A stretch of 64,000 bases of DNA from an uncultured Clostridia bacterium (GCA_944360115.1 CALVTH010000004.1:3330-67329); one strand, 5' to 3'; positions 9,621 to 17,031 are shown, counted from the stretch's first letter. The notes: generated by a model from the letters alone, not told the origin. Numbers and translations: made by a program.

Positions 9621-11012
9621 GTGATTATAAAGTACAACAAGATACATCATGTCATCGAAGAGCACGCCTACAAGCCTAATCTTCAGGATGTCGATCACCC
9701 CAATCTTCACCGCAAGATATTCACCTACGGCGAAATTCCCAAGACGACATTCAACATGCGGCATGTGCCTATGGAATGTCCCCGCGACATCTACATGACG
9801 GACACCACTTTCCGTGACGGACAGCAGGCGTGCAAGCCGTTTTCCGTCAGGAACATAGTGGACCTTTACAAGATGTTGCACCGTCTCGGCGGTCCCAACG
9901 GGCTGGTGAGACAGAGCGAGTTCTTCCTCTACAGCGACAAGGACAAGGAAGCCGTGACCAAGTGCCTCGACCTCGGCTACGAATTCCCCGAAATCACCTC
10001 GTGGATAAGGGCGAACGAAAAGGACTTCGAGCTGGTCAAGCAGTTCGGGCTCAAGGAGACGGGCATACTGGTCAGCTGCTCCGACTATCACATCTTCAAG
10101 AAGATGAATCTCACCCGCGGGCAGGCCATGGAGAAATATCTCACCATAGTCAAAAAGGCGCTCGAACTGGGTATCGTGCCGCGTTGCCACTTCGAGGACA
10201 TCACCCGCGCGGACTATTTCGGATTCGTCGTGCCCTTTGCGATCGAACTGATGAAACTGTCCCGCGAGAGCGGTATTCCCATCAAAATCCGCGCCTGCGA
10301 CACCATGGGTTACGGCGTGACCTATCCCGGCACCGCGCTCCCGAGGAGCGTGCAGGGCATTGTCTACGGGTTCCGCTATTACGCCGAAATCCCGTCCGAG
10401 CAACTGGAATGGCACGGACACAACGATTTTTACAAGGCGGTCGTCAACTCGGCGACGGCGTGGCTGCACGGTTGCTCGGCGGTCAACACCACGATGCTGG
10501 GCATAGGCGAGAGAACGGGCAACACCCCCCTCGAGGCAATGGCGATAGAGTACACCTCGCTGCGCGGCACGGCGGGCGGAATGGATCTGTCCGTCATCAC
10601 CGAAATCGCCGAATATTTCGAACACGAAATGGGGATGGACATCCCCGAGAGGACGCCTTTCGTGGGCAAGAATTTCAATGTCACAAAGGCCGGCATCCAC
10701 GCCGACGGAATGCTCAAGGATCAGGAGATTTACAACATCTTCGACACCGAGAAAATCCTCAACCGTCCCGCGCGCGTCATAGTGGATTCCTTCAGCGGAC
10801 TGGCGGGCATAGCGTTCTGGATAAACTCCTATTACAATGTGCCCGAGGAAATGAAAATCGACAAGAAAGACGCGCTCATAGCCGCCATAAGGGAAAAGGT
10901 GGACGAGCAGTACGCCGCGGGCAGGACGACGGCAATCGCCGATGAGGAGCTGGACGCGATGTTCCTTGCTCTCGACGCCGAAAGGCACGCCGCTTTCTCG
11001 GCTTATCTGTGA
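9621..11012 (+). CDS. HMGL-like (pyruvate carboxyltransferase) family synthase: homocitrate / isopropylmalate / Re-citrate synthase-like
   Basis: DTTFRDGQQ motif after an N-terminal extension of about 60 aa, HxH-type motif (EWHGHNDF), TIM-barrel-length body, 463 aa. GAGGAGG RBS before GTG 9621. Confidence 0.75.
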   Translation: MIIKYNKIHHVIEEHAYKPNLQDVDHPNLHRKIFTYGEIPKTTFNMRHVPMECPRDIYMTDTTFRDGQQACKPFSVRNIVDLYKMLHRLGGPNGLVRQSEFFLYSDKDKEAVTKCLDLGYEFPEITSWIRANEKDFELVKQFGLKETGILVSCSDYHIFKKMNLTRGQAMEKYLTIVKKALELGIVPRCHFEDITRADYFGFVVPFAIELMKLSRESGIPIKIRACDTMGYGVTYPGTALPRSVQGIVYGFRYYAEIPSEQLEWHGHNDFYKAVVNSATAWLHGCSAVNTTMLGIGERTGNTPLEAMAIEYTSLRGTAGGMDLSVITEIAEYFEHEMGMDIPERTPFVGKNFNVTKAGIHADGMLKDQEIYNIFDTEKILNRPARVIVDSFSGLAGIAFWINSYYNVPEEMKIDKKDALIAAIREKVDEQYAAGRTTAIADEELDAMFLALDAERHAAFSAYL

Positions 11013-11093: not shown

Positions 11094-11522
11094 ATGATAA
11101 AACTCATCACCGGAGCCAAGGGCACCGGCAAAACCAAGATTATTATAGACATGGCGAACGACAATGTCGAGACCGCAAAAGGCGATATAGTTTTTATCAC
11201 CGACACCGACAGGTATATGTATTCCCTGCGTTACCAGATCCGCGTCATCAACACCGAGTGCCTGAAAAAGGTCAGGGGCGCGATTGACGAGCGCGAACTG
11301 ATGGGTTTCATCAAAGGCATACTCGCAGGCAATCACGACATAGAGACCCTTTACATCGACGGCGCGCACAGAATGCTCAACCGTCCCGTCTCCGAGATGG
11401 AGGACTTCTTCACCGACATCTACGCGGTGGCGACCACGACGGAGACGCGCTTCGTGCTCACCGTCAGCGAAAACGAGGAGAATTTCCCCGATTTCCTGAG
11501 GAAATATCAAGGAGCAGAATGA
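11094..11522 (+). CDS. small stand-alone P-loop NTPase-like protein (142 aa), function unknown
   Basis: Walker A GAKGTGKT at residues 7-14. Candidate Walker B at DIVFITDTD or LYIDGA. GGAGG RBS and an upstream TATAAT-like box. Stop overlaps the thrC start (ATGA). Confidence 0.6.
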   Translation: MIKLITGAKGTGKTKIIIDMANDNVETAKGDIVFITDTDRYMYSLRYQIRVINTECLKKVRGAIDERELMGFIKGILAGNHDIETLYIDGAHRMLNRPVSEMEDFFTDIYAVATTTETRFVLTVSENEENFPDFLRKYQGAE

Positions 11523-13031: not shown

Positions 13032-14057
13032 ATGGCAGAAACGACCGATAAAACTCCGATCGAAAGAAAAAAGATAGTCCTCAGCGGCATACAGCCGACG
13101 GGCACGATCACGCTCGGCAATTATCTCGGCGCGGTGTCCAACTGGGGCAAAATGCAGCAGGACTACGACTGCATATTCTTCATTGCCGACCTGCACGCGC
13201 TCACCGTGCGCCGCGAGCCAGCCGAATTCAGGCAGGCGTGTCTCGGCTTTTTCGCGCAGCTGCTCGCGTGCGGCATAGACCCCGCGAAATCCCTGCTTTA
13301 CTTCCAGTCTCATGTGCCCGAGCACGCCGAACTGCAGTGGATTCTCAACTGCAACACCTATGTCGGCGAGGCGTCCAGAATGACGCAGTACAAGGATAAA
13401 AGCGCAAAGCACGCCGACAATATAAACATGGGGCTTATGGACTATCCCGTGCTCATGGCGGCGGACATACTGCTTTTCCGTTCCGACCTCGTGCCCGTGG
13501 GCATAGACCAGAAGCAGCACCTCGAACTCACCCGCGACATCGCGGTGAGGTTCAACAACCGTTACGGCGACACTTTCACCGTGCCCGAGCCTTACATCCC
13601 GCGCACGGGCGAAAAGATATGTTCGTTGCAGGACCCCACGGCCAAGATGTCCAAGTCCGATCCCGACGCCAACGCGACGGTGTCCGTCATCGAGGACGAG
13701 GCGACCATAGTGCGCAAGTTCAAGCGCGCCGTCACCGACAGCGGCAACGAGATAGTCGCCCGCGCCGACAAGCCCGGCATAACCAATCTGCTCACCATTT
13801 ACGCGGCGATTACGGGCAAGACGGTGGCGGAAGCCGAGAAGGAATTCGCGGGGAGCGGTTACGGCACTTTCAAAGTCGCCGTCGGCGAAGCCGTCGCCGC
13901 GGCTTTTGCGCCCATACGCGCCGATTACGCCCGCTATCTCGCCGACAAGGCGTATATGGCGGAGGTGGCGAAGGACTGCGCTCAGAAGGCGTCCGCTTTC
14001 GGCAGGCGCACCCTCGACAAGGTCAAACGCAAGGTCGGGCTCGTGTCCTTCAAATGA
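13032..14057 (+). CDS. trpS: tryptophan--tRNA ligase
   Basis: Class I motifs: HIGH-like TLGNYLGA, KMSKS, and DQKQHLELTRDIA. Confidence 0.95.
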   Translation: MAETTDKTPIERKKIVLSGIQPTGTITLGNYLGAVSNWGKMQQDYDCIFFIADLHALTVRREPAEFRQACLGFFAQLLACGIDPAKSLLYFQSHVPEHAELQWILNCNTYVGEASRMTQYKDKSAKHADNINMGLMDYPVLMAADILLFRSDLVPVGIDQKQHLELTRDIAVRFNNRYGDTFTVPEPYIPRTGEKICSLQDPTAKMSKSDPDANATVSVIEDEATIVRKFKRAVTDSGNEIVARADKPGITNLLTIYAAITGKTVAEAEKEFAGSGYGTFKVAVGEAVAAAFAPIRADYARYLADKAYMAEVAKDCAQKASAFGRRTLDKVKRKVGLVSFK

Positions 14058-14112: not shown

Positions 14113-14973
14113 GTGTTCGGGTATGTCATTCCGGATAAGGACAATATGTACATCAAGGACTTCAATGTCTTTCAGTCGTACTATTGCGGGCTTTGCAAAA
14201 CCCTCGCGCGCACGGGCGGACCGCTCACGCGGCTGTGCACCAACTACGATGTGACATTCTATAACGCGTTGCTCCATTCCGTCGCCGACATCCCCGTCGC
14301 TTTCGAGCGCAGGGTGTGCCTTGTCAATATGCGGAAGAAGCCCGTCGTCGTGCCCGACGACCTCACCCGCAAGACCGCAGACATCGCCGTGTTGCTGGTG
14401 TACTATAACGCCGACGACGATGTCAGGGACGGCAGGAAATCGCGGTGGTTCGTCAAGGCTCGGCTGAGACTGAGAAAGCGCGCCGCGGCAAGACGCCTGC
14501 CAGAAATAGACGCCCTTATGAAAGGCAGCTTTTCGAGGCTGGCGAGGCTGGAGGAGAGCGGGTGCGACAACATCGACGAAGCGGCGGACTGTTTCGCTTC
14601 GCTCATGCGAGACATAACCCGCGCCCTCGTCGCCACCGACGAGAACACCGACGCGTTCACCTACAACCTCGGGCGGCTGGTCTACCTTTTCGACGCGGTG
14701 GACGATGTCGGCGAGGATATGAAAAAGGGCAGATACAACCCGCTCGTCGCCGCATACGGCAAGTGCGGGAGCAAGAGTCAATTTCTTGCGGAACACGGCG
14801 AAGACCTCGACTTTTTGCTGCGTTCCACCTATAATAAACTCGTGGGCGCCTACAACGCCATGCACATAGTGGTGTCCGAGGGGATGTTGTCCAACACCGT
14901 TTACCTCGGGCTGATGACGCAGATGAACCGTCTGCTGAAAGGAGAAGACAAATGCCAACTGACCCGTTTGTGA
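14113..14973 (+). CDS. DUF5685-like protein (CxxC-containing, function unknown)
   Basis: N-terminus MFGYVIPDKDNMYIKDFNVFQSYYCGLCKTL matches my recollection of the DUF5685 family. GGAGGA RBS before GTG 14113. Confidence 0.7.
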   Translation: MFGYVIPDKDNMYIKDFNVFQSYYCGLCKTLARTGGPLTRLCTNYDVTFYNALLHSVADIPVAFERRVCLVNMRKKPVVVPDDLTRKTADIAVLLVYYNADDDVRDGRKSRWFVKARLRLRKRAAARRLPEIDALMKGSFSRLARLEESGCDNIDEAADCFASLMRDITRALVATDENTDAFTYNLGRLVYLFDAVDDVGEDMKKGRYNPLVAAYGKCGSKSQFLAEHGEDLDFLLRSTYNKLVGAYNAMHIVVSEGMLSNTVYLGLMTQMNRLLKGEDKCQLTRL

Positions 14974-15629
14974 TTCTGGGCATATCCAAGGAATCGTCGC
15001 AGAGCGAGATACTCGAGGCGTACAAGAAAAAGCGCGAGTATTATCAGGCGCATGTGTTCGACGAGGGCGACGCGGGCGCGGAAGCCGCGCGTATGCTCGA
15101 AGTGCTCGACAACGCTTATCAGGACGCGATGACCTATTCTCACGAACACGCCGTGGTGCAGGGCGAGGGCAACAGCGACTTCGACCTCGTCAAATCCGCC
15201 ATATCCGCAAAGGATTTCGTGCAGGCGCAGACCCTGCTCGACGACATGTATTACCGCGGCGGCGAATGGCACTATTATCAGGCTATCGTCTTCTACGAAA
15301 AGAACTGGCTCAACGAGAGCAAGAAGCAGCTCGAACTTGCCGTCAATCTCGACCCCGACAACGCCAAGTACAAGCGCGCGCTCGAGAATATGAAGAAGAA
15401 AATCGACGGCACCAACGCGTTCAACGCCAACAAGGGCGAGAGTTTCCAGAACGCGCAGGCGGGCGGCAAATCGCAGGGCTACAATCCCCAGCAGGACGCC
15501 GCCACCCACCGCACCTATCAGCAACAGCAGGCCAGCGCCGCAGACGGCTGCTGCACGGCTTGCCAGTGCGCGATATGCGCCGACTGCTGCTGCGAATGTA
15601 TGGGCGGCGACCTCATCCGCTGCTGCTGA
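14952..15629 (+). CDS. J-domain-like / TPR-like protein with C-terminal cysteine string
   Basis: DPFVILGISKESSQSEILEAYKKKREYYQAH aligns to J-domain helices I-II, but HPD is replaced by HVFD. TPR-like block WHYYQAIVFYEKNWLNESKKQLELAVNLDPDNAKYKRAL. The last 26 aa, CCTACQCAICADCCCECMGGDLIRCC, contain 11 Cys. The start lies 22 nt inside the preceding gene. Confidence 0.7.
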   Translation: MPTDPFVILGISKESSQSEILEAYKKKREYYQAHVFDEGDAGAEAARMLEVLDNAYQDAMTYSHEHAVVQGEGNSDFDLVKSAISAKDFVQAQTLLDDMYYRGGEWHYYQAIVFYEKNWLNESKKQLELAVNLDPDNAKYKRALENMKKKIDGTNAFNANKGESFQNAQAGGKSQGYNPQQDAATHRTYQQQQASAADGCCTACQCAICADCCCECMGGDLIRCC

Positions 15630-15630
15630 A

Positions 15631-16485
15631 ATGAAGGGCAGGGGCGGACACCCTAACGGAAAAAGAACGGCTTACGCGCTGGCGCTGGCGGGCATATCCG
15701 CCGCGCTCGCGCTTTTGTTTGTGTGGCTGGGCGTCGTCACGCGTTATGTGACGGTGGCGTTTTTCGCGGCGGCGGGACTTGCCGTCAGCATACCGCTTTG
15801 CAAGAGATATTACGCTTCGGGCGTTTTCGCCCTGCTGGTGTCGGCGGGACTGTCCTTCCTCGTCGGCGATGTGTCGGCGGTGGCGGGTTACGCAATCTAT
15901 TTCGGACCCATGGCTCTCATCTCCGCGGTTATGTGGGAGAAGAAAGTCAAATGGTACATCTCCTATCCCGTGAAAATCGTGTGGATAAACGGCGCGATAG
16001 CCGCGCTGTATTTCGGCTTGCAGGCGATAGAAGTGCTTGCTCCCGACCTTGCCGCCGCGCTTCCGTACTGGGCGATTGCAATCGTCGGCACCGTAGGCCT
16101 GTTGCTCATAGACCTGCTGATGAATTTTGCCTACCGCAACCTCAGGACGGTGGCGGCAAAGGTGATACGCGACGGCGGGGAAGGGGGAGTCACCGCCGAG
16201 GAATTCGCCGCAGAGTCGGACGACGACCCTTTCGGGAGAGACGACGACGGAAGGCTTTCCGAGGGCGACGAGCCCGCGCCCGCACACGAAGAAAATGCCG
16301 CGGACGCACCCGAGGACGATGCCGCGCACCCCTGCGACGACCTCGCCCCGCAAGCCCGCGAAAACGGTGGCGGAAACAGTCGTTCCGACTCCCGTTCCAA
16401 CGCCGTTCCGGACGCTCCGTCGGGCGCGGACGCCGGCAACGACGACGCTTCCGCGGAGGACAGTCGGCCGCGTCCGAAGTCCTGA
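15631..16485 (+). CDS. polytopic membrane protein with acidic disordered C-terminal tail, function unknown
   Basis: ATG 1 nt after the upstream stop. Five to six hydrophobic helices, then a D/E-rich tail of about 100 aa. Confidence 0.6.
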   Translation: MKGRGGHPNGKRTAYALALAGISAALALLFVWLGVVTRYVTVAFFAAAGLAVSIPLCKRYYASGVFALLVSAGLSFLVGDVSAVAGYAIYFGPMALISAVMWEKKVKWYISYPVKIVWINGAIAALYFGLQAIEVLAPDLAAALPYWAIAIVGTVGLLLIDLLMNFAYRNLRTVAAKVIRDGGEGGVTAEEFAAESDDDPFGRDDDGRLSEGDEPAPAHEENAADAPEDDAAHPCDDLAPQARENGGGNSRSDSRSNAVPDAPSGADAGNDDASAEDSRPRPKS

Positions 16486-16526: not shown

Positions 16527-16553
16527 AAAACCGCGCCGTAAAGGCGCGGTTTT
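16527..16553. terminator. bidirectional rho-independent terminator
   Basis: AAAA-CCGCGCC-GTAAA-GGCGCGG-TTTT lies between convergent genes. Confidence 0.7.
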
Positions 16554-16589: not shown

Positions 16590-16922
16590 TCACAGATTGA
16601 GGAATTGCACCCCCGCAAACATCACATCCTCAATCTTCCTGTTTTTGAGGGAGTAGTAGACGATTTTGCCTTCCCGTCGGGCGCGCACTATGTCCGCCGC
16701 GCGGAGCAGTCGCAGCTGGTGCGAGCAGGTGGTCTGATTCAGCCCCAGCACGCGGGATATGTCGCCCACGCACATCTCGGATATGGACAGCGCGCATATT
16801 ATCTTCGCCCGCGTTACATCGCCGCACGCCGAAAAGAATTCCGTCAGCGCGTGCAGGGTGGCGTTGTGCGGCACATAGTCGCGTATGAGTTCCACCGTTT
16901 CTTCGTCGAGCAAACATTCCAT
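16590..16922 (-). CDS. ArsR/SmtB family metalloregulator
   Basis: Winged-helix block MCVGDISRVLGLNQTTCSHQLRLLRAADIVRARREGKIVYYSL. ATG at 16922 is preferred over the TTG at 16952. Confidence 0.85.
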   Translation of the reverse strand: MECLLDEETVELIRDYVPHNATLHALTEFFSACGDVTRAKIICALSISEMCVGDISRVLGLNQTTCSHQLRLLRAADIVRARREGKIVYYSLKNRKIEDVMFAGVQFLNL

Positions 16923-17031
16923 AGCCGCATTATAATTCGGTGCACCCCGCAAAAAACGGCGGTCTTTGACCTATTCCCGCGCAATTTGTCATTGCGTCCG
17001 CGGACAACGAAAAAGTCCGCGGGGTGCGGAC

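Follow-up and report, generated by a model that had tools for sequence, protein, structure and literature searches.

The window analysed here is a 64,000-nucleotide (nt) stretch, read on one strand, from an uncultured Clostridia bacterium (GCA_944360115.1 CALVTH010000004.1:3330-67329), with positions counted from its first letter. At 14113-16485 it carries a module whose first two genes, A and B, form an obligate, translationally coupled pair, followed by a third gene, C, for a membrane protein. A is a DUF5685 protein whose modelled fold and invariant Asp motifs are those of enzymes acting on prenyl diphosphates, which they bind and ionise, and B ends in a string of cysteines. We tentatively propose that A S-prenylates the tail of B, anchoring B at the membrane near C, a reading to which we give substantial but clearly less than even credence. 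The wider claim, that DUF5685 is a new family of S-prenyltransferases with the fold of terpene synthases and trans-isoprenyl diphosphate synthases and with the J/TPR protein as its dedicated substrate, is possible but somewhat more doubtful.

The genes and their ribosome-binding signals are arranged as follows:

14113-14973, plus strand: gene A, GTG start, 286 amino acids (aa)

14952-15629, plus strand: gene B, 225 aa

15631-16485, plus strand: gene C, 284 aa

14100..14105, plus strand: Shine-Dalgarno sequence GGAGGA of A, 7 nt 5' of the GTG, read from the sequence

14938..14944, plus strand: Shine-Dalgarno sequence AAAGGAG of B, within the 3' end of A, read from the sequence

An earlier note, made by a model from this DNA, had described a tightly packed three-gene operon, and the open reading frame calls agree with it in every figure: A and B overlap by 22 nt (14952-14973), and a gap of 1 nt separates the stop of B from the start of C. 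Inspection of this second junction, TGAAATG, revealed no Shine-Dalgarno sequence for C, and through it the start of C is coupled to the B stop.

How widely is this arrangement kept? A scan of one genome per species with the B tail motif as query finds a B relative in at least 591 species-level genomes. The hosts are gut and bioreactor Clostridia, most of the relatives being labelled Christensenellales or Clostridia, and the closest named relative, at 80% identity, comes from the chicken-gut metagenome-assembled genome Candidatus Limadaptatus stercoripullorum. We fetched 84 loci through B, namely the best 80 of the at least 591 scan matches and four from an earlier look-up. The order A-B-C on one strand is found in at least 78 of them, the exceptions being truncated contigs and one locus (L072) in which A lies 2.1 kb upstream; the identical 22-nt overlap of A and B recurs in about 55 of the 84. 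The order of the trio and the Cys tail persist where identity of B has fallen to 29%, B relatives are present in no fewer than 591 species-level genomes, and such features lie far beyond chance. The earlier note had named co-occurrence of the trio and conservation of the tail among the points to check, and both are conserved in orthologues.

The pairing also holds in the reverse direction. When 80 metagenome loci were fetched through DUF5685 motifs alone, a Cys-tailed J/TPR gene stood directly after A in every one of the 69 that had at least 700 nt downstream, and these pairs span all tail types, with or without the HPD tripeptide of canonical J domains. (A metagenome scan with one protein as query returned no loci; narrower alignments did recover loci.) C is present in 46 of 54 loci with room for it, unrelated genes take its place in some clades, and it is dispensable in some lineages. 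Clustering of all neighbour genes leaves A, B and C as the only universal neighbours.

A is a full member of DUF5685 (PF18937), which it matches over model positions 1-271 of 272 at 226 bits (cut-off 26.7; E 7e-67). Its initial description as a 'DUF5685-like' CxxC protein was right about the family and the CxxC motif and too cautious in the 'like'. No NCBIfam model matches A. The AlphaFold2 (AF2) model is all-alpha, with a predicted local distance difference test score (pLDDT) of 85.8 and a predicted template modelling score (pTM) of 0.88. In a Foldseek comparison of this model with the Protein Data Bank (PDB), 49 of the 50 matches listed are class-I isoprenoid enzymes, among them polyprenyl, octaprenyl, solanesyl and geranylgeranyl diphosphate synthases, farnesyl diphosphate synthase (FPPS), diterpene synthase, MoeN5 and Ord1; the sole outlier, at rank 46, is a UbiA homologue. 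Template modelling (TM) scores range from 0.5 to 0.59, probabilities reach 1.00 and the best E is 7.7e-3. MoeN5 and Ord1 both alkylate acceptors other than isopentenyl diphosphate (IPP).

Conservation within the family was assessed over 42-74 DUF5685 sequences of 25-77% identity. The invariant positions are G3, Y4, Y24, C25, C28, R40, D46, C69, D102, D106, G187, Y191, D194, A195, D198, D202, N209, N261 and G266, and D103 (>85%) and D197 (at least 90%) are nearly invariant. They include three motifs:

14185..14196, plus strand: C25-G-L-C28 motif of A, making three invariant Cys together with C69 (14317-14319)

14416..14430, plus strand: first Asp-rich motif, D102-D-V-R-D106 (DxxxD/DDxxD), at the C-terminal end of helix 83-105 (AF2)

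14692..14718, plus strand: second Asp-rich motif, D194-A-V-D-D198-V-G-E-D202 (DxxxDxxxD), at the end of helix 177-197 (AF2)

Class-I enzymes bind their metals through a DDxxD or DxxxD motif and, in addition, a second DDxxD or an (N/D)xxx(S/T/D)xxx(E/D) triad. In the AF2 model of A three helices lie between the two motif-bearing ones, which puts the second motif four helices after the first, and in this predicted structure the motifs match, in placement and order, the two metal-binding ones that class-I enzymes carry on helices D and H. At the level of the modelled fold, A belongs to the isoprenoid-synthase superfamily.

The same features would suit a terpene or polyprenyl synthase making a small-molecule or membrane isoprenoid, with B as its dedicated assembly, targeting or regulatory partner and not its substrate, and with C as membrane acceptor or partner. 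In its fold and in both Asp motifs A agrees with class-I synthases and cyclases, and the DxxxDxxxD spacing is that of the NSE/DTE triad in terpene cyclases. Two of 42 DUF5685 members also match Pfam DUF2600 weakly, a family that we take to be that of the YtpB terpene synthases, and C is a membrane protein with weak similarity to S components of energy-coupling factor (ECF) transporters and to DUF2232. We nevertheless find this explanation rather improbable: it accounts neither for the universal Cys-dense extreme C-terminus of B nor for the strict one-to-one, translationally coupled pairing of A with B, C is absent in some clades, and further genes for terpenoid tailoring or precursors are not linked to the module. 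The best structural matches of A, the trans-polyprenyl diphosphate synthases and MoeN5/Ord1, do have two Asp-rich motifs, carried by the counterparts of helices D and H. Compared with these enzymes, however, A is shorter, has DxxxDxxxD and not DDxxD as its second motif, carries no recognised IPP-binding signature and fails the sequence profiles. Its two Asp motifs lie about 96 residues apart, against some 125-140 in trans-polyprenyl synthases, MoeN5 and Ord1.

B, the presumed acceptor, is built as follows:

14952..15149, plus strand: J-domain fold without HPD, residues 1-66 (AF2 pLDDT >95, Foldseek, PDB phmmer)

15171..15428, plus strand: short TPR-like helical domain of five helices, residues 74-159 (AF2 pLDDT >95, Foldseek)

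15429..15548, plus strand: Q/N-rich linker, residues 160-199, predicted disordered (pLDDT <50)

15549..15629, plus strand: cysteine-string tail, residues 200-225 and stop, CCTACQCAICADCCCECMGGDLIRCC

The tail holds 11 Cys in 26 residues; this count, first given in the earlier note, is borne out by the B translation, and the string is conserved in relatives. A tail of the form ADCCCECMGGDLIxCC is kept among relatives at 30% overall B identity. In a set of 235 distinct B C-termini, the last 30 residues contain 5-12 Cys (median 9), and 35% of the last 26 residues are Cys. In 158 of the 235 the chain ends with a Cys, and in 220 the last Cys lies at most one residue from the end; 143 tails end in CC and 39 in CR. 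The types of tail differ sharply between clades (...LICADCCCECMGGDLIxCC, ...CCxMxxCNMLLNCCCNCR, ...CCDCSDCCNCCTTWLCCNCMC, also CCDMIICNMLLNCCCNCR, and others), and what is kept across them is the density of Cys, the hydrophobic residues and the placement at the C-terminus. The Cys-dense extreme C-terminus is the one conserved feature of B beside its J and TPR-like domains. The eukaryotic prenylation motifs CC, CXC and CaaX are likewise C-terminal.

Thiols at such density could also serve a metal site, be it a zinc knuckle, a metallothionein-like thiolate cluster or an Fe-S centre. The tail would then carry no lipid, B would serve as a J/TPR adaptor responding to metal or redox state, and the Asp motifs and three Cys of A would serve some other reaction or metal handling in a stoichiometric complex with B. 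The type-1 tail, with its spacing C204-x2-C207 ... C213-x2-C216-x-G-G, looks like the zinc motif CxxCxGxG known from type I DnaJ; at 30% overall identity hardly a residue of it changes, which is what one would expect of a folded site. A, too, has three invariant Cys, an ArsR/SmtB-like regulator lies nearby in 43 loci (in varying orientation), and the hosts are anaerobes, in which Fe-S proteins are common; all of this points the same way. Tails of other clades, however, are spaced differently (CCDMIICNMLLNCCCNCR, CCDCSDCCNCCTTWLCCNCMC) and keep only the density of Cys, the hydrophobic residues and the terminal Cys. AF2 gives no compact site, the tail being modelled as a helix of low confidence (pLDDT about 50-59) and not as a folded metal-binding domain. 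The Asp motifs of A, which are of the prenyl-diphosphate type, are left unexplained, and the link to the ArsR-like gene is for the most part one of synteny in a single lineage (39 of the 43 loci are from the genome set). Taken on these points, a metal site is unlikely, though it deserves a serious hearing.

Upstream of the tail, the AF2 model of B, built on an alignment of 44 sequences, agrees with the TPR-like block and the Q/N-rich linker that had been noticed in the sequence. The J-like head scores only 17 bits against Pfam DnaJ (PF00226; cut-off 27.8), over model positions 1-28 of 63, and matches DnaJ J domains in the PDB with E 0.003-0.02 (phmmer). Structural matches to J domains include 2ctp (target TM score, TMt, 0.58) and 2dmx (root-mean-square deviation 1.9 Å over 55 columns). 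The top Foldseek matches of B are TPR domains, mainly of chaperone-binding or co-chaperone proteins (E 6e-3 to 0.1), and TPR_2 of Pfam is matched at 15.1 bits (cut-off 27). A conserved block, AEWHY...W...QLE.A...DP.N.KY, marks the TPR-like region, and in the linker a tyrosine upstream of the tail, Y189, is conserved at 90% or more.

The absence of HPD, claimed from the outset, is real, but the sequence HVFD that was thought to replace it lies two residues past the true HPD position, which is Q32-A33-H34 (15045-15053) in a family alignment that includes HPD-bearing members. B homologues number 2085 in clusters of 90% identity, with 660 representatives at 50% clustering, and have in common the J-like head, the block in the TPR region, a variable linker with a near-invariant Tyr, and the Cys-dense C-terminus. 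HPD is present in about 50 of 256 collected family sequences: members from Ruminococcus, Oscillospiraceae, Acutalibacteraceae and Congzhengia (for example loci L069-L083) carry a canonical KKYHPD, whereas the HPD-less ones, the window protein included, have a different conserved loop, typically RF.EGE.GA.AA. The HPD-bearing sister clades sit in the same A-B-C trio, and one orthologue is recorded as a Pfam DnaJ match. By its fold and its HPD-bearing orthologues B belongs to the J-domain family, the window copy being a J-like variant; since HPD is missing from that copy, it is unlikely to stimulate the ATPase of DnaK/Hsp70. Combinations of a J domain with TPR repeats are also found in the eukaryotic co-chaperones DNAJC7/TPR2 and DNAJC3/p58IPK, in which many TPRs precede an HPD-bearing J domain, whereas in B the J-like head comes first, followed by about two TPR-like repeats and the Cys tail. 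Three longer representatives of the B family (P0140, P0184 and P0239; 327-466 aa) combine part of B with sequence resembling a membrane protein or an ABC ATPase, and may be fusions or artefacts of assembly or gene calling.

What could an enzyme of this fold do to such a partner? In favour of prenylation stand the strict pairing of A with B and their conserved 22-nt overlap with its internal Shine-Dalgarno sequence, the modelled fold and the Asp motifs of A, the weak DUF2600 matches, the C-terminal Cys of the B tails, the lack of a folded metal-binding domain in the tail model, and the precedent of ComQ and PalQ. Gene coupling, the fold and motif pattern of A, the domains of B and the tail statistics are shown, whereas catalysis, acceptor, metal site and localisation are inferred. 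Under the proposed prenylation, A would use its class-I isoprenoid-synthase fold to prenylate a protein, in analogy to ComQ and PalQ. A Mg2+ cluster bound by its DxxxD and DxxxDxxxD motifs would ionise an allylic diphosphate, for instance farnesyl diphosphate (FPP) or geranylgeranyl diphosphate (GGPP). C25, C28 and C69 would hold a putative Zn2+ or similar metal activating the substrate thiol, much as Zn-dependent thiol alkylation proceeds in the eukaryotic protein prenyltransferases and in Ada. A would then move the prenyl group onto one or more Cys thiols of the B tail, which might come to carry several such groups. The lipidated tail would tether the J/TPR head to the cytoplasmic face of the membrane, beside C or bound to it where C exists. 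In the HPD-bearing lineages the anchored B would recruit DnaK to the membrane; in the HPD-less lineage of the window it would act as a membrane-tethered adaptor without Hsp70 stimulation.

Parallels for parts of this scheme exist in eukaryotes and in bacteria. The geranylgeranylated -CC and -CXC termini of Rab proteins and the farnesylated CaaX terminus of Ydj1/DNAJA have their Cys at or near the C-terminus, as does B with CC in 143 of 235 tails, and in Ydj1/DNAJA a J-protein is targeted to the membrane by an isoprenoid, as we propose for B. In eukaryotic prenylated proteins one or two Cys are modified, and the B tail has many more; the eukaryotic enzymes that prenylate proteins, alpha-alpha-barrel heterodimers with Zn in catalysis, also differ from A in fold. 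Closer to A in fold are ComQ and PalQ, which belong to the isoprenoid-synthase superfamily and prenylate peptides encoded alongside them (PMC10853753, PMC13290415). ComQ, PalQ and the P-domain of ChrPC share with A an all-alpha class-I isoprenoid fold in which an Asp-rich motif serves the prenyl-diphosphate donor, and with the A-B pair a gene order in which the enzyme comes directly upstream of the polypeptide that it partners. For PalQ the residue to be modified must itself be the C-terminal one (PMC10853753); in B, too, the conserved feature lies at the C-terminus. There are also differences: PDB profile and Pfam searches detected no sequence-level relationship between A and ComQ/PalQ; the characterised members of this group all modify Trp on short ribosomally synthesised and post-translationally modified peptides, whereas the presumed acceptor here is a Cys string on a folded J/TPR protein of some 200 aa; and A, unlike ComQ, has its second motif complete, with the three invariant Cys in addition.

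Several observations weigh against prenylation of B by A. The fold relationship of A is remote, as no Foldseek match reaches E 1e-3. At the sequence level, a Pfam search with 42 DUF5685 members at E up to 10 yielded no match to polyprenyl_synt, SQS_PSY or terpene-synthase families; the profile of these 42 members found no isoprenoid enzyme in the PDB, only designed helical repeats; and its alignment with CrtM by hhalign (sequence entered by hand) covered the second motif only, at a non-significant E of 0.06. The spacing CxxC...CxxCxGG of the type-1 tail could make a zinc knuckle. C is missing in some clades and is therefore not essential to the core function. Clustering of the neighbour genes found no isoprenoid-pathway, dnaK or sporulation genes linked to the module, and the lack of the first two counts against the proposal. 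Finally, the characterised peptide prenyltransferases of the isoprenoid-synthase fold all target Trp and not Cys (PMC13290415, a 2026 review). Further comparisons added little: A as a single sequence gave only spurious PPR matches in the PDB, the peptide of its second motif gave none there, hhalign of the DUF5685 profile with IspA (sequence again entered by hand) produced no meaningful alignment, and a second profile search for DUF5685 homologues recovered the same close clade with no added diversity. A bona fide polyprenyl synthase, sought in the window as an internal comparator, was not found there. Because the sequence-level tests are not significant, the assignment of A is one of fold and motif pattern and not of shown homology.

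The third gene encodes a protein of two regions:

15631..16164, plus strand: core of C, residues 1-178, polytopic membrane protein with about six hydrophobic segments (hydropathy)

16186..16485, plus strand: acidic low-complexity tail of C, residues 186-284, with 28 D/E against 8 K/R

The hydrophobic segments agree with the polytopic membrane protein that had been placed third in the operon. The acidic tail is restricted to the subclade of the window, while the N-terminus and the predicted cytoplasmic loops are basic. Mean identity within the C family is 24%, with no invariant polar residues. The window copy matches nothing in Pfam or NCBIfam, and 4 of 39 family members match DUF2232 (best E 1.3e-5). 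Against the PDB, the family profile gave non-significant matches, the best to the CAAX prenyl protease ZMPSTE24 (profile 105-171 against residues 346-415, E 0.1), probably a match of hydrophobic composition, and next to a folate ECF S component (full length, E 0.9). We considered C as a CaaX protease or as an enzyme like isoprenylcysteine carboxyl methyltransferase (ICMT) and rejected both roles, as C has no conserved catalytic residues and the ZMPSTE24 match is partial and of that low significance.

The character of C also bears on whether the tail might instead be S-acylated (palmitoylated), as in the eukaryotic cysteine-string protein CSPalpha/DNAJC5, or insert itself into the membrane, with C as acyltransferase or receptor and A as an accessory. 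The resemblance to CSP had been pointed out at the start, and it is one of architecture only: B, like CSPalpha, has a J fold and a dense Cys string, the would-be lipid anchor. In CSP the HPD is functional, the string is central and palmitoylated by DHHC enzymes, and a conserved C-terminal domain is present. B, in contrast, has no HPD, its string stands at the extreme C-terminus, a TPR-like domain intervenes, its partner gene is isoprenoid-enzyme-like, and its similarity to J domains in the PDB is generic; nothing in the sequences suggests common descent of B with DNAJC5 beyond the J domain. Besides this architecture, the hydrophobic residues of the tail and the position of C, immediately downstream and translationally coupled, would be in keeping with acylation. 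C, however, has no invariant catalytic Cys, His or Asp at its 24% mean identity and is missing in some clades, profile searches found no DHHC-like or other acyltransferase signature, and the conserved, catalytic-looking motifs of A are ignored. We therefore regard acylation as very improbable.

Returning to prenylation by A, protein Cys prenylation is regarded as a eukaryotic trait. A search of the literature on DUF5685, PF18937, bacterial Cys-string J proteins and bacterial Cys prenylation brought up nothing relevant beyond ComQ and PalQ; within this literature no homologue has a documented function, as the earlier note had supposed. A Cys-directed member of the superfamily acting on a folded protein would be new, because the characterised enzymes all target Trp (PMC13290415). 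If the proposal is right, many gut Clostridia carry an endogenous system for protein cysteine prenylation, a bacterial counterpart of the CSP and Rab lipid anchors that would have arisen independently on a different enzyme fold. It would bring a new enzyme family and a new post-translational modification into bacterial cell biology, give DUF5685 a function, reveal a way of holding a co-chaperone at a bacterial membrane, and offer a new biocatalyst for Cys prenylation. Should prenylation prove wrong, the strictly paired A and B would still constitute a large uncharacterised system.

The tryptophanyl-tRNA synthetase gene trpS (window 13032-14057) lies directly upstream in 52-55 of 69 loci with room, also in a distant clade with type-2 tails (L086), and not so in the HPD-bearing loci of Oscillospirales. 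No terminator-like site was seen in the 55-nt gap between trpS and A. Rfam at gathering thresholds reports no RNA family across the 64-kb window (GC content about 58%), nor in two related loci (L001, L004); a T-box or riboswitch in these three sequences therefore does not explain the link of the module to trpS. Downstream, the module is followed by a possible terminator:

16531..16553, no strand assigned: intrinsic-terminator-like hairpin CCGCGCC-GTAAA-GGCGCGG, followed by TTTT and preceded by AAAA, read from the sequence

The hairpin sits between C and a convergent ArsR-like gene and, to judge from its sequence, could work in both directions; it is not listed by a terminator consensus scan because its T-run is below the threshold of the scan.

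This convergent gene (16590-16952, minus strand) encodes an ArsR/SmtB-like helix-turn-helix regulator with several Cys (...SEMCVGDIS...). Homologues lie within a few kb of the module in the 43 loci mentioned above, and in one locus (L138), where C is missing, the ArsR-like gene follows B on the same strand. Its proximity may reflect nothing more than synteny, or may point to control by metal or redox state. Farther upstream, a gene at 11094-11522 on the plus strand encodes a P-loop/AAA-like protein of 142 aa with a GAKGTGKT motif. It lies between an HMGL-like synthase gene (9621-11012) and thrC, whose start it overlaps by 4 nt, and keeps its position in 51 related loci; the homologue in L001 has only weak Pfam matches, to SLFN-g3_helicase and AAA_22. 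The neighbouring trpS, thrC, small AAA-like and ArsR-like genes reflect lineage synteny.

Within the module itself, the junction of B and C is enlarged in the lineage of 'Firmicutes bacterium CAG:475', where 300-1180 nt of non-coding DNA take the place of the single nucleotide found in the window (L001 6643-7819; L004 6643-7689; L002 6643-6986). The enlarged spacer, for which Rfam gave no match in L001 and L004, carries two to three copies of an element of about 50 nt, of the form ...TTCATC.AAATATCGCATTTTAG..AAC.GAT.TGCGCTATT..GCGA....

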